Virus record (IMG/VR): IMGVR_UViG_3300043178_000179
DNA: 64,000 bases
Strand: one strand, 5' to 3'
Source: a virus
Taxonomy: Duplodnaviria; Heunggongvirae; Uroviricota; Caudoviricetes
Position 1 is the first letter of the stretch, and each line of letters opens with the position of its first letter. The position numbers were made by a program, and so were the translations under genes. This document shows, in pieces, positions 5,635 through 42,639 of this stretch. The notes under the pieces were generated by a model, which had not been told where the DNA came from, searched no databases, and was given only the letters and a program-made list of their open reading frames with translations.

Positions 5635-5960
5635 TCCGTCGCCTGGAGGAGATCGCCAGCGCGCGGGTCCAGGAGCGACGCACGGCCCGCGTCGAGGCCG
5701 GCGTGAAGCAGCGCAAGGACATGCCGCCGCCGGCCTGGTTCCAGGTCCGCGATCCAGTCGCCATCGCGGCGTGGCGAGCCACGCACCCGGACGCAGCCGA
5801 GGACGAGCAGAACCGCCACCTGTGCGCGCCCATCGACCAGGCCCTGGAGTGGGCGCGCACCTCGCGCGGCGGGCGCCAGGTCCAGATGTTCGGCGCACCG
5901 TCGCGGGATTGGGCCTGCTCACGATTCGGCTACTGCGAGACGCGGCCGGAGGAGTCGTGA
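5631..5960 (+). CDS. hypothetical protein
   Basis: GTG start overlapping the upstream TGA. Cys-containing 'CAPIDQALEW...FGYCE'. Confidence 0.4.
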   Translation: MIRRLEEIASARVQERRTARVEAGVKQRKDMPPPAWFQVRDPVAIAAWRATHPDAAEDEQNRHLCAPIDQALEWARTSRGGRQVQMFGAPSRDWACSRFGYCETRPEES

Positions 5961-6307
5961 CCGCCTGGACCGTCACCACCAAGGGGAACCTGCGGTGCCG
6001 GGCACACTTCCGCCGGGAGGGAGCCGCTGCTGGCATTCCCGGCGCGCTCCCCATTGCCTCGGAGTTGATCCGCGCTGCCGTAGTCGCGCTGGACCTCCCC
6101 GCGGTGCGTGCGGCTTTCCACCTGGTACTCCAGGGGTGGCCCGAGCTGGGCGAGTGGACCAAGCGCGGCACCTCCCCGCTGAGTGCGGCGTGGACCAAGG
6201 CGACGGCATACCGCGTCGTCGGTAACGCCGTGCCGCCTTCGCTGGCCGAGGCCGTCGGGCGGGCCGTGATCGAGGCCGATGCCACGTGGCGCAGGGTGGC
6301 GGGGTGA
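5957..6307 (+). pseudogene. remnant of a C5-cytosine DNA methyltransferase (C-terminal motifs IX-X only)
   Basis: 'LQGWPELGEW...YRVVGNAVPPSLAEAVGRAVIEA' is near-identical to the C-terminus of the full methylase at 26550..28334. Motifs I-VIII are absent. Confidence 0.5.
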
Positions 6308-7205
6308 CCCGCCCCCGCGGTCTCTACGTCCCCTTCGCCGGGGCGCTGGGCGAGACGCTGTGCCTGCTCGGGGGGCGGCGACTGTTGCCCCCGTGCGGGT
6401 ACATGGGCTCCAAGCGCGCATACGGGCCGGCGATCCTCGGCGCGCTCGGCCTGCACCCCGGTCAGGGCTGCGACCTCGCTCTGATCGTGGACGCCGGACC
6501 CTGGGGCTGGGCCTGGCAGCACCTCTTCCAGGCGGACACGGCGCGATCCGTCGCGGCCCAACTCCGCGCGTGGCGTGGCGAGGACCCGGTCGGGCTCTGG
6601 CGCCGGCTGGCCGCAGAGCCACCGCCCGGGGATCTGATCGACGGGATCGCGACTTGGCTGTGGCTCCAGGCGCGGTGCGCGAACGCTTGTCCGGTGTGGT
6701 GGGATGATACCGGCTGGCGGATGGGCGACAAGCCGCGGTCGGGTGGGGCGAAGGGTGCGATTCAGCACGGGCACCACGCGGACCCCGACCACCCGCACAT
6801 CCAGTGGGGACGGCGGCCGGCCGCACCCGAGCCGGCCGTTCGACATGCCAGCCGCGAGATCCGCCCCAAGGGCACGGGGCGCGGGACTGTACGCGGCATG
6901 ATCGACCCCGGCACCATCGCCGCGCGGATTGAGGCCATCGCCCACCAGTTTGCGGCGTACCTCTGCCTCCAGGCGGGGGCGGCGCTCAGCAAGCCCGTGG
7001 TCGTGCGCGACGGGAGATGGAAGACGGCGGGTTACGGTCACATCAGCGAATCCGCTCGCGAGCGTGGCTTCGTGGACCGCCTGCGCTCCGACATGATCGC
7101 GCTCTGCGTCGACCGCCTCGCGGAGCTCCGGGCTCCGGCCATCGTCGCCTGCCACGCCCGCGCCGAGGACTGCGTGCCGCAGGGCGACCTGGACGGCTGG
7201 GTCGC
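6127..7205 (+). repeat. direct repeat copy A (~1.08 kb) of the methyltransferase module
   Basis: Near-identical to 28155..29199. Both start at 'ctccaggggtggcccgagctgggcgagtgg'. Confidence 0.8.
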
Positions 7206-7494
7206 GATTCTCGATCCGCCCTACCGCGGCGCGACGAGCTACGCGGCGGACTGCCCGCGCGAGACGGTGCTGGCGATGGCGCTGGACCTGCGAGCCCGCG
7301 GCGCGCGGGTCGCGGTCTGCGAGGCGGAGCCGCTGGCTCTCCCCGGCTGGCATCACCTCGACCTGACGGGCGTGCGCAGCGCGGGCGGGCCCGGATCGTG
7401 GTCCGCACGGCGCGCGAAGGGCGAGTGGCTGACGCTCAGCGACCCGCCGGCGGCGAGGCCGGTGGTCCAGCAAGCGCTCTGGCGGTCCGCATGA
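6303..7494 (+). CDS. DNA methyltransferase, N6A/N4C type
   Basis: 'YVPFAGALGE' (motif I-like) and 'ILDPPYRGATSY' (motif IV, DPPY). GTG start overlapping the upstream stop. Confidence 0.6.
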
Positions 7495-9776: not shown

Positions 9777-10907
9777 GTGGCTTGCGCGCGCTACGGACAG
9801 GAGACGACGCTTCCGACCGGGGTGATCGGCCAGGTGAAGCCGGACGCCGCGACGCAGCCGCCGACGATCTACCAGGCGCTCGCGGCGGGAGCCGGCTTCA
9901 CGGCGGACGCTGACGGTGCCCGCGAGTTGCGGAAGCGTGGCTTCCAGGCGGACGAGGTGGAGCTGAGCCAGGATGACCGTGCCTGGCTGGTCCGGAACGT
10001 GAACGCGGCCTTCGCGAAGGGGACGGTGTGGCGGATCGCCTGCCCGGCGGGACGTATCGCCCGGGATCTCGCCGGGGATGTCTCCTGTGTGACGCTGGCC
10101 GGGTACGTGGGCCTCGACTTCGCGCAGGCCGCAGCCCAGCGCGGCACGGACCTGTCGAAGGACATGGGCGCGGCCTACTCCTGGGTCTCGCCGACGGCCG
10201 TGAGGTTCCGGTTCCTCAAGGGGACGCAGGGTGCGAGCCCGCAGGCGCTCCAGGACGCGGAGCGCTCGGCTCGCGCGCTGGAGTCGATGGCCAAGGCGGT
10301 CCGGGCGATGGAGCCGGTGATGGCCCAGCTTGCGGAGAAGCTGCCCTGGTCGATCCGGGGTTCCTACGCGCGGGCGCTCACGCTTCTCGTCGAGAGCGCG
10401 CAGCCGCTCCGGGCCTACCGCGCGGCGTATCCCGCGAAGGGGTCGGCCGCGCGGCTCGGAGCGCTTCCCCCGGTCCCCCCGGTGGTGCTGTGGGCGGTGG
10501 TGATCATCGGCGCGATCGGCGGGGTGCTGATCTGGCTGGCCTACAAGCAGGAGGACCACCTCCGCGCGAGCGCGGAACTCCAGGTGGCCCAGAACCAGCT
10601 CCCGCTGGTGTTGGCCGAACTGGCCAGGGACCCGGCGCAGCCCAAGGAGGTACGTCGCGCCGCGGCCCAGGCGCTCCAGGAGTGGATGGAGAAGATGCCT
10701 CCTCCGCCGGCGCCGCCAGCGGACCCGCTGTCCGCGCTGACGGATTTCCTCAAGGTGGCCGCGCCCGTGGCGGGTGTCGGATTCCTCCTGTACGCGGCGG
10801 CCCCGATGCTTCGCGAACTCGGCCGGACCGGCGCGGAACAGGTCCGGCAACGCCGGTCCCAGCGCATGCTTCCGGTCGAGGGCCAACGGGCGAACGGCCG
10901 GGCTTGA
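9777..10907 (+). CDS. membrane protein, hypothetical
   Basis: TM segments 'VVLWAVVIIGAIGGVLIWLAY' and 'VAAPVAGVGFLLYAAAP'. Confidence 0.5.
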   Translation: MACARYGQETTLPTGVIGQVKPDAATQPPTIYQALAAGAGFTADADGARELRKRGFQADEVELSQDDRAWLVRNVNAAFAKGTVWRIACPAGRIARDLAGDVSCVTLAGYVGLDFAQAAAQRGTDLSKDMGAAYSWVSPTAVRFRFLKGTQGASPQALQDAERSARALESMAKAVRAMEPVMAQLAEKLPWSIRGSYARALTLLVESAQPLRAYRAAYPAKGSAARLGALPPVPPVVLWAVVIIGAIGGVLIWLAYKQEDHLRASAELQVAQNQLPLVLAELARDPAQPKEVRRAAAQALQEWMEKMPPPPAPPADPLSALTDFLKVAAPVAGVGFLLYAAAPMLRELGRTGAEQVRQRRSQRMLPVEGQRANGRA

Positions 10908-10909
10908 GC

Positions 10910-11038
10910 GTGGCGGTGCCGCCGTATCCATGGGACTGGAACCGACTGCTGACGGAGCAGGATCCGTTCACCGGTACGACGCCGGTCGAGACGGTCGTGT
11001 CGGAGCTGGCCGGTCTGCCTCGCCGAGCTGGTCGGTGA
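10910..11038 (+). CDS. small hypothetical protein (42 aa)
   Basis: GTG start 3 nt after the upstream stop. Confidence 0.3.
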   Translation: MAVPPYPWDWNRLLTEQDPFTGTTPVETVVSELAGLPRRAGR

Positions 11039-11042
11039 GCGC

Positions 11043-12647
11043 ATGGCTCGCGCCCGCACGCGCCGCTGGCTCGCAGCGCACGACGCCGAGCTGCGCTCCG
11101 TGCGGACTGCCGCCGAGCTCACCGACCTGATCCGGGTCTACGACGCCGAGGTCACCGGCCGCGCCTGGGAGGCGCGCGAGGCGCGGGAGGCGGGTCGCCG
11201 GCGCCACGTCGCCGCGCGGCGGACGGAGCGGGTGCAGGCGCTCCGCGCGGCCGCGGCCGCCGCGGACCCGGGCCCGGTCTCGACGCCGGAGGCGGGCCGA
11301 CGCTGGGCGAGGCTCGGGGTGCTGCCGCGGCCGGTGTACCACGCGACCCGGTTCGGTCCGCAGGTTCTGGCCACGGGACTGCGGAGCCGGTTCCAGCTCG
11401 CGGTGGGGGCGAAGGAGACGGCCCGTCCCCGTCCCGTGGGCCTCGGCGGCGGACCCGACGAGTACGTCTCGGTGACGCCGAGCCGTGTGCTGGCGTTGCG
11501 CCTGGCCGCGGCCTTGCAGGCGATCAACGAGGCGTTCAAGGATCCGGAAGGCGTGAGCGCCTGGTTCCGGGAGCACTGGCTGCCGTGGGTCTATCGGAGC
11601 CGGGTGTGGAGGGAGAAGCACTACTCCGGGGACCGGCCCGGTCCCGAGTTCGTCCGCAGGGTGCTGAACGACGCCTCGCAGGTTGTGTTCGGGAAGCCCT
11701 GGGCTCCTCCACAGGTGCATGTCCCCTGGATCATGGGAGGCCAGTACCCGGTCCCGGCCTCCTCGATCAGCGTGGTGACGGCCTACGTGCAGGCGGACCA
11801 GTTCGTGAGCAGTTCCTGGAAGGCCACCGACCGGACCTGGGGGCTGGTGGTGGACGCTCCGGCCATGCTCCGGCCGGACTGTCCCCGGGTCCGTGGTGGT
11901 CCCCGGACGAACATCGTGGATGCCGTCCGGCCTGCCGAGTACGCGCCGCTGCTCCCCGCGGCGGTGGCGACCGCGACGGAGAACCCTTTCGAGGGGAACG
12001 AGATCCGCGCCTGCCCCGAGGACGTGACCGTGGTAAGTTTCCAGCCGGTACTCAACTGGCGGAGGATCCTCATGCCCCGATCCGGAAGCGCGTCTCGTCA
12101 TTCGCCCGGCCATTCGCCCGGCTACTGCGAGGTCCCCTGGCTGGCGTCGGGCGGTCGCAACGTGACCGCGAAGGTCCCCGCGGCCCTCGCGGAACCCGGT
12201 GTGGATCCCTTCCAGGAGCAGCGGCGTCGGTGCGTGCTCGCGGTCTACAACCGGTTGGTGGCCTCGGGCGAACCGGAGGGTCGGCAGACCACTTCCCGCG
12301 CCTTCGCGATCTGCACGAAGCAGCTCCAGCGGTACGGCTACATCGTCCCAGGGACGGCCCGTCCGACGCAGAAGGGGATGGCCCGCTCGCTGGAGAAGCT
12401 GGCGGGGCCGCAGGCGGCCGAGCGCCGCGCGGCCTACGAGCAGGTGCTCCGGACGGCCCGGCAGGGTCGGCCGTCGCTCAAGGAGCGGCAGCAGGCGCGG
12501 CGGAAGCTGGACGCCCTACTCGCGCAGGCGCAGAAGGAGTCGGCGAAGGTCATCCCGCTGCCGACCGGGATCGACCGGCTGCTGCGCGAGGCGAAGCGGG
12601 CCGCGAAGCGCCGGACCTCGCGCCGCGGGGCCGCGGCCCGCTGGTGA
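11043..12647 (+). CDS. hypothetical protein (534 aa)
   Basis: ATG start, protein-like composition. Confidence 0.5.
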   Translation: MARARTRRWLAAHDAELRSVRTAAELTDLIRVYDAEVTGRAWEAREAREAGRRRHVAARRTERVQALRAAAAAADPGPVSTPEAGRRWARLGVLPRPVYHATRFGPQVLATGLRSRFQLAVGAKETARPRPVGLGGGPDEYVSVTPSRVLALRLAAALQAINEAFKDPEGVSAWFREHWLPWVYRSRVWREKHYSGDRPGPEFVRRVLNDASQVVFGKPWAPPQVHVPWIMGGQYPVPASSISVVTAYVQADQFVSSSWKATDRTWGLVVDAPAMLRPDCPRVRGGPRTNIVDAVRPAEYAPLLPAAVATATENPFEGNEIRACPEDVTVVSFQPVLNWRRILMPRSGSASRHSPGHSPGYCEVPWLASGGRNVTAKVPAALAEPGVDPFQEQRRRCVLAVYNRLVASGEPEGRQTTSRAFAICTKQLQRYGYIVPGTARPTQKGMARSLEKLAGPQAAERRAAYEQVLRTARQGRPSLKERQQARRKLDALLAQAQKESAKVIPLPTGIDRLLREAKRAAKRRTSRRGAAARW

Positions 12648-13183
12648 ACGGAGGCTGGCTGGCGCTCGGCGCGTCCGCCGGGCTCGCCCTGGCCGCCGGC
12701 GTACCGAGAGGAGCGGCCGCGCGCCTGGCCGCACCGATCCGCCGGCAGGTGGTCCCGCTCCAGCGGGCATCCGTGCAGGTGTTCACCTGCGACACGGCCT
12801 TCGGGGACTGCGACCCGGAGCGCCCGTCCAAGGGGCATTGTCTGTTGGCCGCGATGGCACTCCAGGACCTCGTGGGCGGAAGCATCCGGACCGGGACGGT
12901 CCAGGGTACGCCACACTACTGGAACCGGGTCGGCCCCTTCGAGGTGGACCTGACGGCGGACCAGTTCGGGTTCAAGGCCCCCCGCTGGCGCCGCGGCCGA
13001 CTCTACGCCGGGACGAGGTTCCCCCGGGAGGCCGGGGAGGCGCTGGCGCCGGTCGGTCAGAACGAGACGGTGAACGGGCTGTACCGGAGGTTCCGCCGCC
13101 GCCTGGTGCCCCTGTTGCGCGGCGCCGGACTCGCGGGCGCCGCGAAGACGCTCTCACGTCCCTTGACCGTTCTCAGCCGCTGA
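12644..13183 (+). CDS. hypothetical protein
   Basis: GTGA overlap with the upstream stop. 'CDTAFGDCDPERPSKGHCLLAAMAL'. Confidence 0.45.
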   Translation: MNGGWLALGASAGLALAAGVPRGAAARLAAPIRRQVVPLQRASVQVFTCDTAFGDCDPERPSKGHCLLAAMALQDLVGGSIRTGTVQGTPHYWNRVGPFEVDLTADQFGFKAPRWRRGRLYAGTRFPREAGEALAPVGQNETVNGLYRRFRRRLVPLLRGAGLAGAAKTLSRPLTVLSR

Positions 13184-14892: not shown

Positions 14893-15921
14893 ATGACAAT
14901 CGACGAGTTGCTTCGACGCTCACGCCCCGTCTCGGACTGGTCCGGGGTGACGATCGCCCGCTGGCGGCTTCCGGACTTCGAGCCGATCGCGGTGGCCTTC
15001 TCGGGTGGGAAGGACAGCCTCGCCTGCGTTCTCCATCTCCTGGAGCTGGGCGTGCCGAAGGAGCGGATCGAGCTGTGGCACCACCTGATCGATCCGCCTG
15101 GCCAGCAGTTCATGGACTGGCCGGTGACGCCGGCGTATTGCAAGGCGGTCGCCGACGCCCTGGACCTCCCGATCTACTTCTCCTGGAAGGAGGGAGGGTT
15201 TCTCCGGGAGTTGCTGCGTGAGAACGAGGCGACCGCGCCGGTCGGCTTCGAGACTCCGAGCGGCCGCGTGATCCGCGTCGGTGGAAAGGGCCCTCCAGGG
15301 ACCCGTCGTCGGTTCCCGCAGGTCTCGGCCGATCTCAGCGTGCGGTGGTGCAGCGCGTACCTCAAGATCGACGTCGCCGCGCGGGTGATCACGAACGATC
15401 CGCGCCTGGACGCCGCGACGATGCTGCTCGTGACGGGAGAGCGCGCGGAGGAGTCGCCGGGCCGGGCACGGTATGCCGAGGCGGAGCAGCACAAGACGAC
15501 GACACGCCGGCGTCTTGTGGTCCAGTGGCGCCCGGTGCTGCGCTGGCCGGAGTCGGAGGTCTGGGAGATCATCGAGCGCTGGCGGATCAACCCGCACCCC
15601 GCCTACCGGCTGGGCTGGGGGCGCCTGAGCTGCATGAGCTGCATCTTCGGCGATCCGCGCCAGTGGCGCGCGGTCCAGCAGATCGCGCCCCGGGCTTTCG
15701 CACGGATCGCCGCCTATGAGCAGCAGTTCGGGACCACGATCAGCCGCGAGGGCAACGTCGTGGACCGTGCCCGCTGGGCCGGCGCCGTGGCGCTGCCGCC
15801 AAGCAGCGCGCCCATCGTCGCGAGCGCCATGAGCGAGGAGTTCACCGAGCCCGTGGTGTTGCCCTCCGGCGCCTGGCTGCTTCCCGCCGGCGCGTTCAAG
15901 AGGAGCGGGGGCCCGACTTGA
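14893..15921 (+). CDS. PAPS reductase-like PP-loop ATP pyrophosphatase (second paralog)
   Basis: PP-loop 'AFSGGKDS', 'SVRWCSAYLK', C-terminal 'CMSCIFG'. N-terminus 'MTIDELLRR' resembles the DLDALL motif family. Confidence 0.7.
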   Translation: MTIDELLRRSRPVSDWSGVTIARWRLPDFEPIAVAFSGGKDSLACVLHLLELGVPKERIELWHHLIDPPGQQFMDWPVTPAYCKAVADALDLPIYFSWKEGGFLRELLRENEATAPVGFETPSGRVIRVGGKGPPGTRRRFPQVSADLSVRWCSAYLKIDVAARVITNDPRLDAATMLLVTGERAEESPGRARYAEAEQHKTTTRRRLVVQWRPVLRWPESEVWEIIERWRINPHPAYRLGWGRLSCMSCIFGDPRQWRAVQQIAPRAFARIAAYEQQFGTTISREGNVVDRARWAGAVALPPSSAPIVASAMSEEFTEPVVLPSGAWLLPAGAFKRSGGPT

Positions 15922-16413: not shown

Positions 16414-16914
16414 ATGCGGGGGATGGACCTGGACACCCTGCTCGCACGGGCCCGCCGCGGGGCCCTGGAGGACCTGCTGGCCAGGGCCGCGCCGGTCTGG
16501 CCGGAGCCGTGGCACAGGATCCCCGGTTATGCCCCCGACGGCTACCGGATTCGGCTGAGCGGCCAGGAGCTGTTGGCCTTGCAGTGGCTGCTGGTCGAGG
16601 CCACCGCCCTTCGGAACAGCGCCCTGGTGGAGCTGCGAAAGCTCACCCGTGGCAGGTTCCCTTCGGACCCTCTCGGGCAGGTCGCGGCGCTGCGTCAGCA
16701 CGGGCTCGTGGGTTTCCGCAGGATCTCCGGGAGCGGGGACGGGGACGTGGTGCTGGCGGCTCCGATCGCCCGTGACGTGGAAGGCGCGATTCGGCCCGCG
16801 CTCGCCGCTCCGAGCAAGGGCTACGGGCGACCGACCGCGGCGCAGTTCGAGCTGTTGTCGCAGGCCCTCGACCCCAGCCAGATCGCCAAGCGGCGCTACC
16901 CGAGACCGCGCTGA
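16414..16914 (+). CDS. DLDALL-motif family protein 1
   Basis: N-terminus 'MRGMDLDTLLARARRGALEDLLARAAP'. Confidence 0.5.
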   Translation: MRGMDLDTLLARARRGALEDLLARAAPVWPEPWHRIPGYAPDGYRIRLSGQELLALQWLLVEATALRNSALVELRKLTRGRFPSDPLGQVAALRQHGLVGFRRISGSGDGDVVLAAPIARDVEGAIRPALAAPSKGYGRPTAAQFELLSQALDPSQIAKRRYPRPR

Positions 16915-17558
16915 TGGACCTCGACGCGCTGCTGAGGAGGGCCAAGCGGAGCCGGAGCCCGAAGAGGAAGCCGGCCCTGGACCTGGACCGGTTGCTCGCG
17001 GCCGCCCAAACCCCCGAGGTCGCCCTCGTCGTCCCACCCGCGCCGACAGCCCGGCAGCAGGCCCAGGAGGCGCGGGCGCAGGCGGCCCGGGCCCAGGCCG
17101 CCGTGGCGGCCGTCCAGGGCGCCGTGAGCACGAGGCCGCTGATCGAGTTTCCCGGGCTCGTGCTCGTGTCGCCGCAGGCCCCCGGCGCGCACGGTCGGAT
17201 CTGGTCGACCGACGATCCGGCCATGGCCGCCGCCGCGGCCGTTCGGCTCCCGGGTGACCGCGGCTTCCGCGGCGAGATCATCCTCCTCCGGGGCCGGTTC
17301 GCGATCGTGGCGGACATCCTGGGCACCGGGCTCATCGTCGCCGACACCCAGTGGCCACTGGAGCGCGCGCAGCCGGTTCAGCCGATCGGCGTCGGACGGC
17401 CGAGGCACAACTACGCCTACCTGGTGCTGTCCAGGCTGCGGGACAGTTCGATCACGGAGGTCCGGCGGCAGATGGAGCTCCGCATCTTCCTGGAGAAGAC
17501 CTTGAACGAGGGAAAGCTGCCCCCGATCGCCTACCGGGAGGCCACCCCCTGGCGATAG
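16914..17558 (+). CDS. DLDALL-motif family protein 2
   Basis: 'MDLDALLRRAKRS...ALDLDRLLAAAQ'. ATG overlaps the upstream TGA (TGATG). Confidence 0.55.
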   Translation: MDLDALLRRAKRSRSPKRKPALDLDRLLAAAQTPEVALVVPPAPTARQQAQEARAQAARAQAAVAAVQGAVSTRPLIEFPGLVLVSPQAPGAHGRIWSTDDPAMAAAAAVRLPGDRGFRGEIILLRGRFAIVADILGTGLIVADTQWPLERAQPVQPIGVGRPRHNYAYLVLSRLRDSSITEVRRQMELRIFLEKTLNEGKLPPIAYREATPWR

Positions 17559-17606
17559 GGCTTGTGCGGTCGTGCATCGCGGTTCGCGGCACGGTATGCT
17601 CCTGCC

Positions 17607-18251
17607 ATGTCCGGGTTCCCCCTGTTCGCGGTGCGCGGGAGCCGAGCGCTCGATCTGGACGCGCTGCTCGCGCGGGCCGGAGCCGAGGCGCGACCGAGCC
17701 CGATCGACGCGCTGTTGGCCAAGGCCAAGGTGCTGACGCCGGAAGGGCTCAAGCAGGGGAGAACGGAAGCGGATCTCGCGGGCCTGCGCGCGGTCTTTGG
17801 CAAGGCCGGCCGCCGCTACCTGGACGCGCTCCTGGCGGGACGGAAGACGATCCAGATCCAGGGGCGGAGGTACGAGTTGACGGAGGTATTCCGGGGCAGC
17901 CTTGCTGGGAAGGTCATGCTGGCGGACGGCTACATGGCCTGGCCCGTCGCCCAGGCGCCGGCCGGTGTGAAGGTGGATACCCGGTGGCCCACCTTCGACG
18001 AGATCGGCAGGGACTGGGCGGGCCCCGACTCGGCCGTCGTCCGTTCCATCCTCTTCTCGCCGGAAGGTGACGAGGCCATCCTCGACCCGCCGGATCCTGT
18101 TCGGGTCAACGCGATCCGCCTCGCCGCCATGGCCGAGGCCGTGGACGGGACAGCGCTGCGGACCAACGCAGGCGCTCCACCGAAGGACCTGGCGGCGACG
18201 GTCCGTGTCGATGGCCGGCGCGGTACGGCCTGGCTCGCGGTGCTGCGATGA
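17607..18251 (+). CDS. DLDALL-motif family protein 3
   Basis: 'ALDLDALLARA...IDALLAKAKV...YLDALLAGRK'. An alternative start at 17562 is possible. Confidence 0.5.
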   Translation: MSGFPLFAVRGSRALDLDALLARAGAEARPSPIDALLAKAKVLTPEGLKQGRTEADLAGLRAVFGKAGRRYLDALLAGRKTIQIQGRRYELTEVFRGSLAGKVMLADGYMAWPVAQAPAGVKVDTRWPTFDEIGRDWAGPDSAVVRSILFSPEGDEAILDPPDPVRVNAIRLAAMAEAVDGTALRTNAGAPPKDLAATVRVDGRRGTAWLAVLR

Positions 18252-19025
18252 AGATCGACGACCTGCTGCGGAAGGCCGGTGCGGCCGCGAAGCCGAAGGT
18301 CTCGCTGGACGCGCTGTTGGCCGCCGCCGCGCAGGAAGCGCCCCCGGCGACCCCGGTCTCGTCTCCCCGCGCGGCCCCGCGCCGCCCGTCGCCGCCGCCG
18401 CCCCCGCGCCGACAGCCGGCCGCCCGCGGCCCGGCCATGCCCGGCGCGCGGGCGTTCACCGACGCCGACATCGCGGCCGCCGAGGCGGAACCGCCGAAGG
18501 GATGGCGGGTGCGCAGGTTGGATCCGAAGTCCCTCGTCGGCGGCGCCGTGACCTGGATCCGTCCGATGGACAGGCCGGTGGGTGGCCTGGAGTGGGACGC
18601 GCTGGTCTCGGTGAGCTGGGCCCTGGGCTCCTGGCACGGGGCGTCCGGCAAGGACGGGTGGTGGACGGTCCGGTCGCTGCCTTTCGACGGTGTCGAGCGC
18701 TCCTTCCACGGGGACGACGCGAAGGCCGCGATCCGCCAGGCGTTCGCCTGGATGCGCTCGGCGCCGAAGCGTGGGAGCCGCGCGATGGAGAAGCCGGAGA
18801 TCGCCATCGTCCGTGTCGAGCCGATCCACCAGGGCTTCAAGCCTCACGCGATGGCGAAGGCGGCCGCCCGGGGACGGACCTACGACCCGCGCGAAATCGT
18901 CGCGGTCCGCGTCACGATCGCGGCCGCGGACGCTACCACCGCCCAGAGCGAGTGGGCGAGGCAGGCGGCCCGCGAGGCTGCGTGGAAGGTCACCCGCGGA
19001 CCACGACCTGGGAAGTTTCCTGATG
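18248..19025 (+). CDS. DLDALL-motif family protein 4 (3' end uncertain)
   Basis: 'MKIDDLLRKAGAAAKPKVSLDALLAAAAQ'. ATGA-coupled start. The frame stays open into R/G/P-rich sequence, so the true stop was not identified. Confidence 0.4.
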
Positions 19026-20798
19026 CCGAGCATCGACGCGCTGCTCGCGAAGGCCGCGCGCCAGGCGCCCCGGCAGGCTCCGGGCATGGACCTGGACGCG
19101 CTGCTGGCCCGGGCGGCTCGACAGGCCGCCCCCGCCGCCGGCGTGGCTCGACAGGCCGCCCCTGCCGGCGTGGCCCGGGTCCAGGCCCCTCCGGCGGCCG
19201 CCAAGCCGAAGGGGAAGCTCCGGCGGCTGCACGACCCGAAGCTCGCCCCCGCCAAGGGCGTCGAGGTCACCCAGGTCCGCACCCAGGCCGGCGGCAAGCC
19301 GTTCGAGGTGGACGCGCTCGTCCTCTCCTCGACTCCCGACCTCGTGGTCCACCGTCCGATCAGGGTCTACGACGAGGTCTTCTCGTCCGACGGCTTCGTC
19401 GTGACCCATCGCTGGACCGGCGCCGCGGTCGCCTACGGTCCGCCGGACGCGATCCCCCAGGATGCGATCCCGCTCATTCCTGCCGTCGCCACCTGGCTCC
19501 GGAAGGGCAGGATCGACCTGGCCGAGCGGGACTACGAGAAGCTCAGCGCCGCCAGCCGTGCCTCCGGGTTGGACAAGGGGGAGGTCGAACGGCTCCTCCA
19601 GGATCCCCGGAAGCTGCCGCGGCTGGTCGCCGCGCGCCAGGCCGCGCGGGCGCAGCGGCGGAAGATCGTGCTCGGCCAGGGGATCGGCGATGCCCAGATC
19701 GCGGCGGAGATCCGCGCCGCGATCCGGAGGGACGACGGCCTGGCGCTCTACGGTAACGAGCTGGCCGTGCGCATCGGACCCTTCCCGGCCTTCCACTACC
19801 GGTTCTGTTGGACGGGGAAGAAGGTCGTCCTGGACCCGTGGACTCCGCAGGGCTGGCGTTCCGGTCCCGAGCCCCGGCTCGGGATCGACCAGCCGGTGAT
19901 CCGGAAGCCGTCGAAGGTCGTGCTCGACGCGCTCGACGAGTTCATGTCCGCGGCGACGGCCGCGCGGCTCCGTGGCCGGAAGAAGCTGGCGTGGCCCGTG
20001 CCCGACGCACCGGTCGGGCGGATCCGTCGCGCGAAGCCACTGGACGCCGAGCAGCAGCTCCGGCGGCGCGCGAGCTACCTGCACGCGATGGACCCCGAGG
20101 CGAAGAAGCCGGTCAAGCCGGTCGTCGTCCTGGTCGAGGCCGACAATCGGCTCTGGGTCTGGCACGGCGGCGTGGTGGGGCCGGGTCCGGACAAGATGCT
20201 CTACGAGGTCGTGCCGAAGGCGGCCTGGAAGGGTCCGACCTTCGGCTACAAGGAGAGCGGCCGCGCGCGCTCGCTCGGACTCGTGTTCTGCGACGACGCG
20301 GCCGACGAAGCCGGGCACGAGATCACCGTGCGTGGCCAGTCCTACGTCCACACCGGGCGGACCATGCTCGTCACCGCGCCCATGATCTCGGACGACATGT
20401 TCGCCGAGGGGCTCTTGCTGCTCAAGGACAAGCGACTCGTGATGAGCCTCGGTCCCGTCCAGCGACCGCGGGCCTTTTCCGGCCGCCTCGGTGATGTGGA
20501 TCCGGCGCGGGTGATGGCGGTCGACCTCCGGGACCCGAGGACCGTGGCGATCGCCAAGGCCAAGGTCAAGGGAGCGACGTTCGCGGAGCTGGAAGCGATG
20601 GCCCGGCCGAGGCCCATCGTGGTGCAGCTCGGCGACGTGGCCGAGTACCTGCACCTCCGCACGGCCGAGGAGGAGATCAAGAAGCGCGCGCCGGGCTTCG
20701 ACTGGCAGGTCCGTCAGGCGCTCGCGGCCCTGATGCGCAAGCCGCACGAAGTCGAGGAGCAGGACAGGGACGAGGACGAGGAGGAAGGCGAGGAATGA
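19023..20798 (+). CDS. DLDALL-motif family protein 5 (591 aa, acidic C-terminal tail)
   Basis: 'MPSIDALLAKAARQAPRQAPGMDLDALLARAARQ'. C-terminal 'EVEEQDRDEDEEEGEE'. Confidence 0.55.
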   Translation: MPSIDALLAKAARQAPRQAPGMDLDALLARAARQAAPAAGVARQAAPAGVARVQAPPAAAKPKGKLRRLHDPKLAPAKGVEVTQVRTQAGGKPFEVDALVLSSTPDLVVHRPIRVYDEVFSSDGFVVTHRWTGAAVAYGPPDAIPQDAIPLIPAVATWLRKGRIDLAERDYEKLSAASRASGLDKGEVERLLQDPRKLPRLVAARQAARAQRRKIVLGQGIGDAQIAAEIRAAIRRDDGLALYGNELAVRIGPFPAFHYRFCWTGKKVVLDPWTPQGWRSGPEPRLGIDQPVIRKPSKVVLDALDEFMSAATAARLRGRKKLAWPVPDAPVGRIRRAKPLDAEQQLRRRASYLHAMDPEAKKPVKPVVVLVEADNRLWVWHGGVVGPGPDKMLYEVVPKAAWKGPTFGYKESGRARSLGLVFCDDAADEAGHEITVRGQSYVHTGRTMLVTAPMISDDMFAEGLLLLKDKRLVMSLGPVQRPRAFSGRLGDVDPARVMAVDLRDPRTVAIAKAKVKGATFAELEAMARPRPIVVQLGDVAEYLHLRTAEEEIKKRAPGFDWQVRQALAALMRKPHEVEEQDRDEDEEEGEE

Positions 20799-21459: not shown

Positions 21460-21786
21460 ATGGACATGAAGTTCACCGTCAAGTTGCCCGCCGCACCGAC
21501 GACGCGCGATGAGCTGCTGGCCCAAGCAGCGGCCATGGGCATTGAGCTGGCCGGGGAGTGGATCTGTCCATGCTGTCGCGGCGCGGCGTACCTCAGCGCC
21601 TCGATGGAGACAGCCTGGAGTCTCGTGGCGGACTTGGCGGAGCCCTTCGTCGTTTGCGGCGTGGGCCCCTGGGGCTTCACCTGTGGGACCGCGCAGAAGG
21701 CGTCGCTGCGGCCGCCGCTGGACACGCTGTCCTTCCTTCGGGAGCAGGCCGCGCTGGAGCCGCAGGAAGCTGCGGAGGCCGGGTGA
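21460..21786 (+). CDS. small Cys-containing protein
   Basis: 'EWICPCCRGAAY...VVCGVGPWGFTCG'. Confidence 0.4.
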   Translation: MDMKFTVKLPAAPTTRDELLAQAAAMGIELAGEWICPCCRGAAYLSASMETAWSLVADLAEPFVVCGVGPWGFTCGTAQKASLRPPLDTLSFLREQAALEPQEAAEAG

Positions 21787-26239: not shown

Positions 26240-26553
26240 CCTCGCGCGACCTCGCCCTCCTCCTCCCGGCCCTGGACCGCGCCACCGGCCGGCCGTGGAC
26301 GACGTGCGTGTGCGGCGACGGGCGGCTGCTCGCGTGGCCCGCGGGCGATGGCGGTCGCATCGGTGGCCAGCTTGCGCTCATCGAGTGCTGGACGCAGGAC
26401 GCCTACCGCTCAATGCCGCACACGATCCGGCGCGTGGTTCTCCGGTCGCAGTTCCGCGCGCTGGATGGCGACCGGCGGGACATTGAGGCCGGGCCCGGCT
26501 GGCCGATCCGGGCGGCTGCGGCCGTAGTCGAGATGCTGGCGGCGCGGACGTGA
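26236..26553 (+). CDS. small hypothetical protein ending in the shared '...RAAAAVVEMLA' junction motif
   Basis: GTG start. The 3' end is DNA-identical to the 3' end of ORF 4736..5002. Confidence 0.4.
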   Translation: MTSRDLALLLPALDRATGRPWTTCVCGDGRLLAWPAGDGGRIGGQLALIECWTQDAYRSMPHTIRRVVLRSQFRALDGDRRDIEAGPGWPIRAAAAVVEMLAART

Positions 26554-28334
26554 TCGCCGTTGACCTTTTCGCTGGTGGCGGCGGCGCAGCGCTGGGCCTC
26601 GCTCGCGCCGGCATCGAGCACGCGGCCTGCGTGGACTTCGATGAGGACGCCGTAGTGGTCGCCCGGCGCCTCGGCCTGCCTGCTGTCTGCGCGCGGGTGG
26701 AGGAGTGGACGCCGCCGTCAGGCTCGGTCGATCTCGTGTGGGCGAGCTGCCCCTGCCAGGACTGGAGTACCGCCGGGAAGCGCAGAGGGGCGCAAGGGCA
26801 GCGCAACGGCTACCCCGCGCTGTTCGCGGCACTCGACCGGATGGCCGAGGCGGGCTGCTCCCCGAGGTGGCTCCTGGGCGAGCAGGTCCCCGGGATCCTC
26901 GCCCACAAGAGTGCTGCGGAGTGCGACGAGGGGCGCGACCCGCGGCCCATCGACTGCCCCGCCTGCTACTGGCACGCCGAGCTGGTTCCCGAGTTCCGCC
27001 GCCGCTTCGCGGTCGTCCAGTGGCGCGTGCTCGACGCGGCGGACTACGGCGTCCCCCAGCGGCGACGGCGGGTGATCCTCGTCTGCGGTCCCGTGCCGAT
27101 CCGCTGGCCGGCGTCCACCCACAGCCGCGAGGCGCTGGTGTGGGCCAAGTGGGGACGCGGCGAGCTGGGGGGCGTCCAGGGCGGATCCTACTGGATCGAG
27201 CACGGGATCTCGCCCGTCGGAGAGCCATCCCGAGAGGAGCGCCGGGTGCTGAGCCAGATGCGATCCGTCGGCCTATTCGGCGTGCCGTGGGCGCCGCAGC
27301 GGTGGCGGACCGTGCGGGACGCGCTGGGGCTGGCCCAATGGGCGACCGAGACGCGATTCAGCGGCGGACTCCTGGCGGTCACGGGGCCCGAGCGGAGCGC
27401 GGCCCCGCAGTCGGTGCGCGTGCTCACCGCAGATGAACCCTCGGATACGCTGAGCGGCGGCACACCGACGGGGAGTCATCGAGCGCCGTTGGTCCAGATG
27501 ATCGGGGGCAACCGAGGGCGGGCGCAAGGTGGTGTGCTGCGTGGCCCGATGATCAACGGGGTAGATCAACCCGGATGGACGGTAGATCGCACCCCCACAA
27601 GCCTCCGTGTCATCGGTGGTGGACATCATCCACCCGCCGACCAGGAGGCCACGCGCACCCTCAGCGACCTGACAGACGAGCCATCCACGACGATTCCGGC
27701 GGGGTACGTCGGAAGCAACGGGCCGTGGGTGCTCGGCACCGGCGCGGAGACAGCGAGCCGCGCTCGGCGCGTGCTCAATGCGAAGCATCCGCCCGCTGAC
27801 CCGGATGCGCCGATGCCGACCTGTCGTTCGGGCGGCGACGGACATACCGCCCCGCCGCTCTACTTGCGCACCGAACAGGTGGGTGCCTCCGCGACGAGCG
27901 TGGATGAACCGAGCCCGACGCAGCCAACGGTCGGGAACCAGTACCTCCACCCGGCCGATCCGGGAGTGCGCCGCAAGGGTGACCTGCTGGATCTCGATGC
28001 CGCCTCACCGACGATCCGCGCGCAGTCGTCCGTGGACGCCTCGGGGCACCAGGGCGGGCACGCGGCGCCGTTCGTCGCCCTCGGTGACAGCGAGAGCGAC
28101 GCGGTGTTCCTCGCCACCGGAATCCGCCGCCTTACGCCTGGGGAGTGCGCTATACTCCAGGGGTGGCCCGAGCTGGGCGAGTGGCGCCGAGGTGGCGACT
28201 ACCCGCTGAGCGCAGCGCGCACGAAGAGCATGGCATACCACGTCGTCGGTAACGCCGTGCCGCCTTCGCTTGCCGAGGCCGTCGGGCGGGCCGTGATCGA
28301 GGCCGATGCCACGTGGCGCAGGGCGGCGAAGTGA
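26550..28334 (+). CDS. DNA (cytosine-5)-methyltransferase
   Basis: Motif I 'VDLFAGGGGAALGL', motif IV 'SCPCQDWSTAGKRRG', motif X 'GNAVPP'. GTGA-coupled start. Confidence 0.8.
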   Translation: MIAVDLFAGGGGAALGLARAGIEHAACVDFDEDAVVVARRLGLPAVCARVEEWTPPSGSVDLVWASCPCQDWSTAGKRRGAQGQRNGYPALFAALDRMAEAGCSPRWLLGEQVPGILAHKSAAECDEGRDPRPIDCPACYWHAELVPEFRRRFAVVQWRVLDAADYGVPQRRRRVILVCGPVPIRWPASTHSREALVWAKWGRGELGGVQGGSYWIEHGISPVGEPSREERRVLSQMRSVGLFGVPWAPQRWRTVRDALGLAQWATETRFSGGLLAVTGPERSAAPQSVRVLTADEPSDTLSGGTPTGSHRAPLVQMIGGNRGRAQGGVLRGPMINGVDQPGWTVDRTPTSLRVIGGGHHPPADQEATRTLSDLTDEPSTTIPAGYVGSNGPWVLGTGAETASRARRVLNAKHPPADPDAPMPTCRSGGDGHTAPPLYLRTEQVGASATSVDEPSPTQPTVGNQYLHPADPGVRRKGDLLDLDAASPTIRAQSSVDASGHQGGHAAPFVALGDSESDAVFLATGIRRLTPGECAILQGWPELGEWRRGGDYPLSAARTKSMAYHVVGNAVPPSLAEAVGRAVIEADATWRRAAK

Positions 28335-36795: not shown

Positions 36796-38268
36796 ATGGG
36801 TCTCTCCGAATCCTGGTTCACGGTCGATCGCAAGGGCCTCGCGAAGCTGCTGGAGCGCCGCGGCCTGGCCTTCGCGGTGCTGGAGCTCGTCCAGAACGCC
36901 TGGGACGAGCCCGGCGTCACCGAGGTGGATGTCACGTTGGAGCCGGTCCCGGGTCGGCCGCTGGTGCGGCTGACCGTGGGCGACGACGCCCCGGCGGGTT
37001 TCCAGCGGCTCTCGGACGCCTGGACGCTCTTCGCCGAGAGCGCCAAGAAGGGGAACCCTTCGCAGCGTGGCCGGTTCAACCTGGGCGAGAAGCTGGTGCT
37101 CTCGCTCTGCGAGGAGGCGACGATCGTGACGACGACGGGCGGAGTCCGCTTCGACATCGCGGGACGCCATGCCCTGCGGCAGCGTCGCGAACGAGGTTCG
37201 CTCGTGACGCTGATCCTGCGGATGACGCGCGAGCAACTCGCGGAGGTCCGTGCCGTCGCCGCGATGCTGATCCCTCCCGACACGATCCGCACGGTGTTCG
37301 ACGGGCAGGTGCTTTCTTCCCCGACCCCGGCCGGCCGGTGCGAGGTTGTGCTCCCGACCGAGCTATCCGACGAGGACGGGTTCCTCCGGCCCTCCGCGCG
37401 GAAGAGCGCGGTCACGGTCTACGAGGCGCCCAGCGGAGGCTGGCTCTACGAGATGGGGATCCCCGTCGTGGAGACGGGCGACCGCTGGCACTACGACGTG
37501 GGCCAGAAGGTCCCGCTCACGATGGACCGGCAGAACGTGCCGCCGTCCTTTCTCCGCAAGGTCCGCGCCGGGGTGCTCAACGCGCTCGCGGACCGGCTCC
37601 GGGACGAGGACGGGGCCGAGGGGTGGGTGCGGGAGGCCGCGGCCAGCCCCGAGTGCGAGCCCGCGGCCTTCGCGTCCGCGCTGACGTCGCGCTTCGGCGC
37701 GAACCGGGTGATCTACGACCCCTCGGACCCGGAGGCGAACCACCGGGCGGTGGCCGCCGGGTACACGTTGGTCCGGGGGAACCAGCTCTCGGCCGGCGAG
37801 CGGCAGAACCTCCAGCGGTTCCGGGACATGGGCCACCAGACCTTGCCGCCCGCGGGTCGGGTCTTCCCGACGAGGCCGACGGCGAAGGAGCCGACGCTGC
37901 CCGAGCGTCTGACCCCCGGCATGGAGCGGGTCTGTGACTACTCGGCGCATGTCGGGACGGTGCTGCTTGGTCTCCCGGTGTCGGCCCGGGTGATCGAGGA
38001 CCGGGAGATCACGGTGCTCGCGAGCTACGGCAACCGCCGGGTGACCTTCAACGCCGCCCGGCTGCACCCGGCCTTCTTCGACCGCACCGACGCCGACGGG
38101 CTGTTCTCCGTCCACGCCCTGCTCCTGCACGAGCTGGCGCACGAGTCCGAGGGCAACCACCTGGCCGACGGGTACCACGACGCGCTGTGCGACCTGGGCG
38201 CGGGCCTGGCCCGGGCGCTGCTGGACGGTTCGATCCGCCCCCGGGCCTACGGCTTCGATGTACCGTGA
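36796..38268 (+). CDS. GHKL-type (histidine kinase/Hsp90-like) ATPase domain protein with a C-terminal HExxH motif
   Basis: N-box 'LELVQNAWDE', 'GNPSQRGRFNLGEK'. C-terminal 'LLLHELAHESEGNH'. RBS AAGGAG. Confidence 0.55.
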   Translation: MGLSESWFTVDRKGLAKLLERRGLAFAVLELVQNAWDEPGVTEVDVTLEPVPGRPLVRLTVGDDAPAGFQRLSDAWTLFAESAKKGNPSQRGRFNLGEKLVLSLCEEATIVTTTGGVRFDIAGRHALRQRRERGSLVTLILRMTREQLAEVRAVAAMLIPPDTIRTVFDGQVLSSPTPAGRCEVVLPTELSDEDGFLRPSARKSAVTVYEAPSGGWLYEMGIPVVETGDRWHYDVGQKVPLTMDRQNVPPSFLRKVRAGVLNALADRLRDEDGAEGWVREAAASPECEPAAFASALTSRFGANRVIYDPSDPEANHRAVAAGYTLVRGNQLSAGERQNLQRFRDMGHQTLPPAGRVFPTRPTAKEPTLPERLTPGMERVCDYSAHVGTVLLGLPVSARVIEDREITVLASYGNRRVTFNAARLHPAFFDRTDADGLFSVHALLLHELAHESEGNHLADGYHDALCDLGAGLARALLDGSIRPRAYGFDVP

Positions 38269-38271
38269 CCT

Positions 38272-38659
38272 GATGGCTTCGCCGCTCCCGCTGCTCGGGC
38301 CCGCATGGCGCCCGGTGCACACGCTGATCGTCTCGCTCTCGCCCGACGGCACCGGCGGGCCGTTCCACGCCTCCCCTGGTCGGGTGCTTCTCCGGGGACC
38401 CGTCATGCAGGCGACGTTGTCCGTGCCGCTGCCGACCCGGACGGGATGGGTCAGCCGCCCGTGTCCGAGTGCGGTTCCGTTCGATGCGCTGGCGCTGCAC
38501 GGAGCCGATGGGGTCATCGACCCGGCCGTGCTGGTGGAGGTGGTCGGAGCCAAGAGGAGCCGTGATTTCTTCCTCGTGCCATCCGACGTGGCGCTCGCCG
38601 CGCTTGTCGAGATCCCGTACCCTGGGCGGTGGTCCGTCCTGCTCCGGGTCATGCGATGA
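38272..38659 (+). CDS. hypothetical protein
   Basis: 128 aa downstream of the GHKL gene. Confidence 0.4.
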
Positions 38660-39497: not shown

Positions 39498-39526
39498 GGG
39501 CCTGGCAGGAGGATCGATGACTCTCA

Positions 39527-39927: not shown

Positions 39928-40168
39928 CGGCGGAAGCGAAGCTCCACTGGCTGACAGATCCACCGGAATGGTCTCGTGGATCCGGAGGGAGTCGGACGCC
40001 CGCCCGCGCGAGCCGAAACTGATCGGCACGCCGCGGACCTTGAGGCTACGCACGACCAAGTCGTGGCCAGCAAACAGCGCAGAAAGCCGCCCCGGTTCCG
40101 GGATTCCGAGTATCCGCCGGCCCGGTCCGGCCACCTCGAACTTGTTCATGCCCGAAGGGTAACCCCTT

Positions 40169-42035: not shown

Positions 42036-42076
42036 GCCCCCTCCGGTCAGTCCGGAGGGGGCGTTCTCGTTTCTGG
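42036..42076 (+). terminator. rho-independent terminator (11-bp GC stem plus U-tract)
   Basis: gccccctccgg-tcagt-ccggagggggc followed by gttctcgtttct. Confidence 0.6.
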
Positions 42077-42638: not shown

Positions 42639-42639
42639 C

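Follow-up and report, generated by a model that had tools for sequence, protein, structure and literature searches.

A short, usually duplicated peptide on otherwise unrelated proteins of a large phage is probably a docking tag

The DNA analysed here is a stretch of 64,000 nucleotides (nt) from the virus record IMGVR_UViG_3300043178_000179 of IMG/VR (the window), with a GC (guanine plus cytosine) content of 71%. At 16414-20798 it carries five consecutive genes whose products all begin with two or three copies each of a short, Leu-rich motif, as a preliminary description made from the sequence had reported. We refer to these copies as tags; they are arranged as follows (lengths in amino acids, aa).

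16414-16914, plus strand: gene 1, 166 aa from 16414, or 163 aa from the ATG at 16423
16429-16452 and 16465-16488, plus strand: gene 1 tags LDTLLARA and LEDLLARA, at residues 3 and 15
16914-17558, plus strand: gene 2, 214 aa, its start overlapping the stop of gene 1 (TGATG)
16920-16943 and 16983-17006, plus strand: gene 2 tags LDALLRRA and LDRLLAAA, at residues 3 and 24
17607-18251, plus strand: gene 3, 214 aa
17655-17678, 17703-17726 and 17820-17843, plus strand: gene 3 tags, at residues 17, 33 and 72
18248-19023, plus strand: gene 4, a coding-like sequence of ~258 aa
18254-18277 and 18305-18328, plus strand: gene 4 tags IDDLLRKA and LDALLAAA, at residues 3 and 20
19023-20798, plus strand: gene 5, 591 aa
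19032-19055 and 19092-19115, plus strand: gene 5 tags IDALLAKA and LDALLARA, at residues 4 and 24

The annotated start codons are supported by the tight packing of the genes, with stop/start overlaps at genes 2, 4, 5 and the next gene (TGATG at 16912-16916, ATGA at 18248-18251, TGATG at 19021-19025 and ATGA at 20795-20798), and by independent gene calls on a metagenome contig, which agree with the starts (products of 166, 214, 214 and 591 aa). Both contradict the possibility, raised with the preliminary description, that the true starts lie downstream of the motifs. The end of gene 4 is less straightforward. Its reading frame stays open until 19756, which is 733 nt into gene 5, while the codon-position GC signal departs from this frame at ~18900-18950. 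In the third frame, a TGA (19021-19023) shares bases with the gene 5 ATG, as TGATG, an arrangement that recurs elsewhere in the operon. Inspection of the gene 4 end revealed no canonical -1 slippery heptamer, and this region reads identically in a second assembly. The open frame could be due to a frameshift, an indel or a real overlapping extension.

Beyond their tags, the five proteins show no BLASTP similarity to one another, which bears out the view that their bodies are unrelated and led us to reject paralogy of the bodies. Genes 1-5 have no match in Pfam, PHROGs or NCBIfam, even at relaxed thresholds. A single-sequence AlphaFold 2 (AF2) model of gene 2 has low overall confidence (predicted local distance difference test, pLDDT, of 41) and is usable for secondary structure only; it places helices at residues 3-11 and 24-30, which correspond to both tags.

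From the aligned copies (consensus xx-[LI]-D-x-L-L-[AR]-x-A), the unit is an amphipathic core of 8 residues, [LI]-D-x-L-L-[AR]-x-A, followed by basic residues. The tandem copies are thus as originally noted, while the unit is not a heptad, and the third copy in gene 3, at residue 72, lies beyond the first ~60 residues to which the motif had been assigned. A six-frame scan with [LIVM]D.LL gives 23 matches in the 64 kb, and 11 of these are in-frame in the five consecutive genes, within 16.4-19.1 kb. Further matches fall at the starts of two PP-loop genes (14893 on the plus strand and 49336 on the minus strand), at the C-terminus of the product of 11043-12647, and inside the gene at 34874-36190 (minus strand).

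This number of matches far exceeds that produced by composition. When the residues of the predicted proteome (74 proteins, 17,481 residues) were shuffled 1000 times, [LI]D.LL occurred 1.17 times on average (maximum 7), against 17 observed, and [LI]D.LL..A occurred 0.14 times (maximum 3), against 13 observed. A position-specific scoring matrix (PSSM) built from the tag copies has 20 matches above 9 bits, compared to 1.3 in the shuffles, with 4 of the 20 lying outside the training set. Each of 80 other viral loci used as a control, four of them with a GC content of 70-74%, contains 0-2 six-frame matches; the 16.6-kb locus L001, which is identical to the window, contains 14. Shuffles and control loci together exclude a low-complexity Ala/Leu bias, the other simple explanation that the preliminary description had named.

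The copies might also reflect a feature of the DNA or an artefact, such as a recent duplication, the above-mentioned Ala/Leu bias or a repeated DNA site at gene starts, be it an operator, a recombination boundary or an element of translation initiation. The high GC content limits codon choice, so that DNA copies look alike, and where the LL pair has its first Leu, CTG is more frequent (12 of 16) than genome-wide (~42%). Against this, the second Leu has the codon proportions of the genome as a whole, the Leu codons at the motif vary between CTG, CTC, TTG, CTT and CTA (TTG versus CTG being a synonymous exchange), and the x position of the motif varies at all three codon positions. A repeat at the DNA level was rejected for these reasons, and from the same two kinds of codon variation we conclude that the motif is conserved as protein and that selection acts on the peptide. 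In addition, copies are found 12-21 residues past the start, at a C-terminus and in a linker, composition is excluded by the shuffle and cross-locus controls, and no Rfam RNA family was detected within 12-21.8 kb. We regard an explanation of this kind as largely refuted and very improbable indeed. A search of IMG/VR with a DNA pattern for MDLDALL gave 17 matches, all of them chance matches and none clustered, and a tandem-tag profile had no scoring match among 5.8 billion proteins.

Tags are not restricted to the five-gene cluster. At least 14 proteins of this phage carry them; about 10 are tagged N-terminally, one C-terminally and two internally. They include the two PP-loop enzymes that had already been recognised as opening with the motif, and the following proteins are encoded in the window.

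14893-15921, plus strand: PAPS-reductase-like PP-loop enzyme, 342 aa, starting MTIDELLRR, with one N-terminal tag (IDELLRRS, 14899-14922)
48068-49336, minus strand: second-type PP-loop enzyme, 422 aa, starting MDLDALLDAAKG, with an N-terminal tag (LDALLDAA, 49330-49307)
11043-12647, plus strand: protein of 534 aa with no known family, homologous to a protein in locus L152, with two C-terminal tags at residues 489 and 510 (LDALLAQA, 12507-12530, and IDRLLREA, 12570-12593)
34874-36190, minus strand: NUDIX fusion (NUDIX at residues ~20-136), with an internal tag at residue 159 (LDRLLALA, 35716-35693)
21460-21786, plus strand: protein of 108 aa with a weak tag-like segment (RDELLAQA, ~21505-21528; PSSM 14.5 bits)

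The last of these is one of four new proteins found with the PSSM, the other three being encoded on L100, a contig reaching 10 kb beyond the upstream end of the window: a protein of 305 aa that contains KALDLDALLRKAQRQSKKARSKK internally, a third PP-loop paralogue (of the LGRDS type) with the N-terminus MQLSIEHLLRRA, and an extremely Lys-rich protein of 109 aa with the N-terminus MLSITKLLAKAKR. The protein just beyond the right end of the window begins with MLTIDELLHRA. Most tags are therefore N-terminal, as first described, but the C-terminal tags of 11043-12647 and the tag in the linker of 34874-36190 are not.

In the NUDIX fusion the tag is followed by a basic, Pro-containing linker and then by a C-terminal domain with 45% identity to part of an N-terminally tagged methyltransferase protein in the related locus L168. 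As a side observation, this domain (residues 169-417) is conserved at L168 14116-14766 and also in L152, L138 and L113, has no Pfam match, and contains the segments FVDSGA(V/F)SEV and LHLLGLG, which by eye recall tRNA/DNA-guanine transglycosylase-like enzymes; we take this to be a likeness only.

The tag appears to be an add-on to conserved enzymes. The enzyme at 14893 has 185 relatives in IMG/VR, in which the N-termini before the SGGKDS loop are short, variable and untagged, and the homologous PAPS reductases in the 80 other viral loci are also without a tag. The other PP-loop family, that of 48068-49336, occurs both with and without an N-terminal extension. An AF2 model of the latter enzyme, based on an alignment of 31 sequences (pLDDT 90), has the tag as a separate helix at residues 3-10, where confidence is lower, followed by a linker (residues 11-18) and then by the first strand of the body. 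A Foldseek search with this model returned weak PP-loop matches only, and sequence searches of PDB, made with the PP-loop enzyme and with the NUDIX fusion, gave no useful information.

Related phages are represented by metagenomic fragments only, and we called their genes by codon-position GC. The comparison covered the contigs of the PP-loop homologues and 56 further metagenomic loci; for proteins fetched separately (e.g. P0003 and P0037), the grouping into lineages was made solely by tag similarity. Among the 30 homologues of 48068-49336 in the collection of 5.8 billion proteins, P0003, P0007 and P0011 have the N-termini MPLDLDRLIAKT, MPKIDLDALFGEPESPRKIDLEALLGKPQ and MKIDLDELLGTK, P0004 begins with MIKLADLLGVS, and others have no N-terminal extension.

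Each lineage has one local version of the tag, found on several unrelated neighbouring proteins. In L119, MATLLELMAK(S/I)(K/R) is present on five proteins, one of them with two copies, and in L146, SRA(D/S)ELL(A/V)(K/R)V is present on four consecutive genes, in tandem on two. Four genes of L104 carry L..LVA(D/E)A(K/R), L102 has KIDLDxLL, L118 has MAR(K/Y)LK(G/S)LLA, and L168 has a 25-residue version, PLAxLAxRxGxPxLAxWL, on four large proteins. The tags of L121 are MNLKDFLAL, MNLKDFLDQ, MTLSQFLALHAR, and MTLAQFLTTY followed by LTLAQLQKQ, while L116, L117, L122 and L162 have MNFADFLA or MGFSDFL. The N(L/F)xDFLA version recurs in L121, L116, L122, L162 and P0038, and the (I/L)DLDxLIAKT version in P0003, P0037 and L184. 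All lineage tags have a helical register in common, in which positions 1, 4 and 5 are hydrophobic, position 6 is small and a basic residue falls at 7-9. At the DNA level the tags of relatives are wholly different, which is a further argument against a nucleotide-level feature.

A second, unrelated family behaves in the same way. Gene 5 has no relatives in IMG/VR, and a word-indexed protein search returned only itself; an exhaustive HMMER search found six homologues of its C-terminal domain (residues ~300-590). All five full-length homologues begin with the tag of their own lineage, four of them with two copies: P0037 has TIDLDALIARTS followed by RLDLDALIAKTA, P0034 has RLDQLIEKA followed by RLADLLAAAEA, P0038 has MNLADFLATYG followed by GTLASFLRNYG, and P0036 has a near-perfect duplication (FNAAAVVRKLNAK and FDAAAVVRKLNAK), while P0035 (MPIDLDKELARL) has one recognisable copy. 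A neighbour of P0037 has the N-terminus MSRPRFDLAALIAKTAP. Judged from these sequences, two unrelated families, the PP-loop enzymes and the gene 5 family, together with their neighbours, change their tags in concert between lineages.

Relatives that have been binned with Myxococcota, as well as P0008-10, P0015 and P0022, carry, on several proteins per genome, an N-terminal module of ~45 residues that forms two helices and has the consensus MxP(D/E)ALLxALxxRLxxxPPxGLxxxD(L/V)DGF(L/F)xRxRxxL. Copies 1 and 2 of the window tag align with helix 1 and helix 2 of this module (MAFFT). Going by this alignment, the tandem motif of the preliminary description is a minimal version of an N-terminal two-helix module, and the latter is widespread among phages of this group.

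The tagged proteins of relatives, as identified with Pfam, include a BRCT-DNA ligase, Mom-like proteins, a C5 DNA methylase, a QueC-like PP-loop protein and hemerythrin-domain proteins. In L168 they comprise a protein of 2369 aa with N6-methylase (N6_Mtase), SNF2 and Helicase_C domains, which is the architecture of DarB; a protein of 1186 aa with Mom, L5-gp82 and DdrB-ParB domains (ddrB-ParB at E = 3.5e-5 and 24.4 bits, below the Pfam cut-off of 27.6); and the Methyltransf_23 protein that shares the C-terminal domain of the NUDIX fusion. L168 also has a single tagged protein of 856 aa (9902-12472) in which both types of PP-loop enzyme, encoded by separate tagged genes in the window, are joined, and this fusion suggests that both act in one pathway. 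A 117.7-kb distant relative without clear tags, L105 (18803-19183; also L107 and L115), encodes a bL12-like protein (Ribosomal_L12) and an HU-like protein.

Of the explanations for this pattern, we favour one where the motif is a portable docking tag that routes otherwise unrelated phage proteins to one common receptor, which would probably be encoded by the phage and co-evolve with the tag; we consider this reading quite likely to be correct. It is based on the combination of features described above, as the tag is portable (N-terminal, C-terminal or between domains), sits on a flexible linker, is usually bivalent (two copies per protein being the rule), and is uniform within a genome and divergent between genomes. 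The last of these points to a receptor encoded by the phage, as opposed to a conserved receptor of the host. The tag would consist of short amphipathic helices, sometimes one but usually two, with a flexible linker, basic and rich in Pro/Ala, connecting them to the body.

The amphipathic character of the tag and the Lys/Arg-rich linkers that follow it could also indicate weak membrane targeting, with an amphipathic helix and a polybasic stretch acting as an inner-membrane tether in the manner of MinE, perhaps beside other proteins with a hydrophobic leader. By eye, the N-terminus of Escherichia coli MinE, which we take to be ALLDFFLSRKK, resembles LDALLAKAKR and TLLELMAKSK, and an additional Gly/Ala-rich hydrophobic N-terminal leader is frequent in the same phages. 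The hydrophobic face of the tag is narrow, being made up in this phage of three Leu plus Ala without any aromatic residue, the motif contains a conserved acidic residue, and hydrophobic-moment values did not separate a membrane helix from a protein-docking helix. Moreover, lipid binding needs physical chemistry only, so that a concerted change of sequence between lineages is not expected. We give membrane targeting a slim chance. Nor is the tag a Sec or Tat signal peptide, as it has only three Leu and charged flanks, whereas such peptides need a hydrophobic h-region of at least 7-15 residues and, for Tat, a twin-Arg.

The second leader is a separate observation. It is unrelated to the LDxLL tag and consists of a Gly/Ala/Leu-rich hydrophobic stretch of 12-18 residues (e.g. 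MSARLAIGAVGVLAGLAALSRRGS), often with DGR before it and R(R)GS(R) after it. In the window it is found in the products of 12644-13183, 52297-52845, 52849-54000, 53997-55460, 55457-56599 and 61199-62335, and elsewhere in L101 (7129-7776), L102, L104, L118, L121, L148, L149 and L154. A regular expression matched it on 26 proteins from 10 loci, among them the PcfJ-like proteins and a methyltransferase. In contrast to the LDxLL tag, this leader keeps its sequence from lineage to lineage, and it may serve as a weak membrane anchor, as a segment resembling signal-arrest-release sequences, or as another sorting signal.

The tag might alternatively be a client-recognition or turnover signal, read by a protease or by a chaperone such as the J-domain protein encoded at 40223-40831 together with host Hsp70. 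Leu-rich cores with basic flanks may resemble the binding preferences of Hsp70, and the J-domain protein is conserved here and, as far as the limited flanks reach, in at least two further lineages (L184/L185 and L118). There is no link between the J-domain protein and the tags, motifs recognised by chaperones and degron motifs seldom occur in two copies and seldom change in concert, and the chaperones and proteases of the host are conserved. To a signal of this type we accord a probability that is, once again, very low. The J-domain protein itself (40223-40831; L184 3748-4227; L185; L118 14794-15183) has a Pro-rich middle and a small conserved C-terminal segment, and in L184 its gene lies next to genes for tagged proteins. 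The protein may be a partner of the tags.

The sequence of this phage that was read amounts to ~76 kb (the window plus flanking contigs); metagenomic contigs matching the window are Logan SRR12687342 and JGI 3300043243, and the longest on record has 95 kb. That the source is a large phage follows from 43 tRNA genes and a transfer-messenger RNA (tmRNA), the phage-typical families DUF5131 and DUF5675, lysis-type enzymes (SLT with PG_binding; CHAP with PG_binding) and many accessory enzymes. The latter include Dam, a C5 methylase, three PAPS-reductase-like proteins, HNH and NUDIX proteins, and further accessory proteins are a GHKL-like ATPase, PcfJ-like proteins and an SPFH protein. The tRNA genes were detected with ARAGORN in three arrays together with the tmRNA (33246-50080), and 34 of them are also above the Rfam threshold; the tmRNA (46506-46877, Rfam 63 bits) encodes the tag peptide ANNNNHFEARAAA. 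One tRNA (34276-34351) has the anticodon UUA and would decode the stop codon UAA. Relatives found via one window protein are viral according to IMG/VR, and genome collections bin them with Myxococcota, Deltaproteobacteria and Bradymonadales metagenome-assembled genomes; going by this binning, the host is probably a member of the Myxococcota. An origin from a conjugative element was rejected in view of the 43 tRNAs and tmRNA, the phage-typical DUF5131/DUF5675 and the viral classification of the relatives, and a signal for a contractile injection system was rejected as there are no sheath, tube or baseplate families. Near-identity DNA searches of phage and plasmid collections with 12-21.5 kb gave no match.

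Further side observations concern other parts of the window. A segment is duplicated (5909-7494 and 28150-29503), with the proteins of 6286-7494 (402 aa) and 28313-29503 (396 aa) being 89% identical across ~310 residues, and the last 59 residues of the C5 methylase (26550-28334) recur at the end of 5909-6307 with 81% identity. The gene for a ThiF/E1-like Rossmann protein (30185-30763) follows one for a protein of 100 aa (region 29886-30763), and 36796-38268 encodes a GHKL-type ATPase (N-box ELVQNAWDE, weak HATPase_c_3 match); neither region carries an LDxLL tag. The ThiF/E1-like protein and the GHKL ATPase may be components of conflict systems.

As to where the docking tag leads, our leading guess, tentative and drawn from analogy, is the interior of the assembling capsid (procapsid). 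Tagged proteins would be packaged and delivered with the DNA; the cargo would comprise DNA-modification, repair and anti-restriction enzymes and fast-evolving orphans such as genes 1-5, and the two copies per protein would allow bivalent, avidity-based binding to a repetitive lattice. We favour the capsid because the only experimentally established phage cases of short N-terminal targeting peptides are capsid targeting sequences (CTS), because the tagged methylase-helicase, DdrB-ParB and ART modules in relatives are archetypal virion-delivered modules, because shells with the HK97 fold load cargo via disordered N-terminal extensions with repeated motifs, and because five adjacent fast-evolving proteins and a small Lys-rich tagged protein (on L100) fit the profile of internal proteins.

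Several observations weigh against this. Genes for capsid, scaffold, portal, prohead protease or terminase were not recognised in the ~76 kb, so that the tagged genes are not tied to a morphogenesis module, and no receptor for the tag was identified in this sequence either. The alignments of the tags (A1 and A2) contain no conserved residue pattern or cleavage site after the tags. Homologues of DarB and DdrB were not found among the window proteins scanned, such cargo and the ART module being found only in relatives, and the tagged ART-PolyVal protein there scores 29.7 bits, just below the Pfam cut-off of 31.2. Finally, the QueC-like, NUDIX, PP-loop and DNA ligase cargo would be expected to do cytoplasmic or small-molecule work, which an intracellular hub fits at least as well. 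The targeting or processing signal of the preliminary description thus survives as an address peptide for a common partner, being an add-on, movable and uniform within lineages; a role in capsid targeting or as a propeptide is plausible. Against such a role, no conserved cleavage site follows the tags, and in the ~76 kb there is no recognisable prohead protease or scaffold, which that description had suggested looking for nearby.

Recruitment to such an intracellular hub, that is, to a common phage scaffold or to a mutual assembly at the site of DNA replication or modification, is nearly as likely as the capsid, though on the whole still doubtful. The scaffold would be part of the replisome, a protein bound to DNA, a condensate or a compartment, following the logic of PIP (PCNA-interacting peptide)-box/clamp, cohesin-dockerin or microcompartment-peptide interactions. 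A hub accounts for the cytoplasmic cargo list better than the capsid does, as most of the cargo consists of enzymes working on DNA or nucleotides in the course of replication (ligase, Mom-like, C5 and N6 methylases, QueC-like, PP-loop and NUDIX proteins), as one domain is common to the NUDIX fusion and the methyltransferase protein, and as the fused PP-loop enzymes of L168 point to a shared pathway. The tagged genes form a partly syntenic island (ligase, gene 5 family, Mom, PP-loop) to which structural genes are not visibly adjacent, and PHROGs searches with the conserved neighbours in relatives gave no structural annotation. The encapsulation peptides of microcompartments, too, are short helical segments attached to disordered linkers, and they are able to drive condensation (PMC12339742, PMC4594438).

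On the other side, no hub was identified, self-BLAST of all window and flank proteins revealed no scaffoldin-like internal repeats, and these proteins have no dockerin or cohesin Pfam match. Bacterial clamp-binding and PIP motifs have the consensus QL[SD]LF or Qxx[LIM]xx[FY][FY], and the tag, xxLDALLAxA, matches neither, as it lacks both the Gln anchor and the aromatic pair. The lineages differ strongly in tag sequence, which speaks against a conserved host hub, there is no evident reason why five proteins without a family (homologues were searched for gene 5 only) and hemerythrin-domain proteins should be at a replisome, and cargo of the DarB/DdrB type is classically found in virions.

A more elaborate form of the docking-tag reading, to which we attach only limited credence, is a dedicated, programmable and lineage-specific sorting system in which the two-helix tag and its co-evolving receptor would lead a defined set of DNA-modifying, repair and counter-defence proteins into a single phage-built destination, either a replication or modification compartment or the procapsid, while the hydrophobic leader would send a different set along a second route. 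In the literature searched, we found no earlier description of such a sorting or "postcode" system, nor of the tag family itself; the shared phage targeting peptides described there are the T4 and P1 cases, together with the analogous systems treated below. What is unusual here is the bivalent two-helix form, the number of clients (at least 14), the concerted divergence between lineages, and the presence of client domains like those of "polyvalent" proteins on separate polypeptides.

If the tag is an address label, it reveals which proteins of poorly known large phages act together, including many without recognisable function, and it would provide a short handle, transferable to foreign proteins, by which these could be loaded into a phage particle or into a structure that the phage makes. 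The versions of the different lineages represent a natural set of possibly orthogonal tag-receptor pairs, and co-variation of the tags should allow the receptor to be found computationally once complete genomes exist. The pattern also suggests that the giant "polyvalent" set of anti-defence domains can be deployed as separate, commonly tagged proteins.

Among known systems, the internal proteins of phage T4 (IPI-III, Alt, gp67 and gp68) are a diverse anti-defence set sharing only an N-terminal CTS (PMC3012670). In both cases a short N-terminal peptide is the only common feature of diverse, fast-evolving proteins of one phage. The likeness is one of described features, no similarity in sequence having been seen, and packaging is only predicted here; moreover, the CTS is single and is removed by the prohead protease, whereas the present tag is usually double, occurs also at a C-terminus or internally, and has no recognisable cleavage site.

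In phage P1, DarB, a large anti-restriction protein of methylase-helicase type, is packaged via its N-terminal 30 residues, and the Dar proteins have no common N-terminal consensus (PMC9024508). DarB and processed DdrB are head components of P1, and their domains are hubs of the "polyvalent" proteins delivered with the DNA (PMC5512222). The relatives of the present phage tag a protein of DarB architecture and a DdrB-ParB protein; the systems differ in that one tag is common to many proteins here, and in that no homologue of DarB or DdrB was found among the window proteins scanned. In the P1 genome (AF234172), darB abuts prt (portal) and pro (protease), a linkage to head genes that has no counterpart in the ~76 kb, where no portal or protease was recognised. 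As a side observation, the packaging signal of P1 DarB, MNKLSMGVFRCSSVSEILKYIRAITSHRAP (17087-17236 on the minus strand of AF234172, our L183), contains an amphipathic SEILKYIRAI whose pattern resembles that of the L146 tag ADELLAKVRRL, which we take as a resemblance only.

The Family 2 encapsulins have disordered, Pro/Gly/Ala-rich N-terminal extensions with repeated short motifs that bind redundantly and cooperatively to the shell's interior (PMC11550324). A terminal disordered extension with repeated short motifs is likewise found here. The motifs themselves differ (GPxGLGT versus the helical [LI]DxLLAxA), encapsulins have few kinds of cargo, compared to at least 14 tagged proteins, and there is no encapsulin or capsid Pfam match here. 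The encapsulation peptides of bacterial microcompartments (BMC) consist of a short amphipathic helix and a poorly conserved linker at the N- or C-terminus of several unrelated enzymes (PMC4594438, PMC12339742), and thus resemble the tag in placing a helix and linker on the termini of unrelated enzymes of one system. They differ from it in being ~18 residues long and usually single, and no BMC shell or EutN Pfam matches were found among ~60 proteins.

In the cohesin-dockerin system of cellulosomes, the dockerin is an internally duplicated module found, mostly in a terminal position, on many unrelated enzymes, and its receptor specificity co-evolves between species. A duplicated docking module on unrelated enzymes is what the two systems have in common; dockerins are calcium-binding and have ~70 residues, and the setting of the present tag is intracellular or within the virion.

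In domain content there is a resemblance to the "polyvalent proteins" of phages and conjugative elements described by Iyer et al. 2017 (PMC5512222), which combine N6 methylase and SNF2 helicase, DdrB-ParB, ART-PolyVal and lysozyme domains and have been proposed to be co-delivered with DNA. In those proteins the domains are fused in one giant polypeptide that is anchored by MuF or portal domains (PMC5512222). Here, the same domain repertoire is found mostly on separate proteins, each with a short common tag, and the tag system may be viewed as an "unbundled" solution of the polyvalent proteins.

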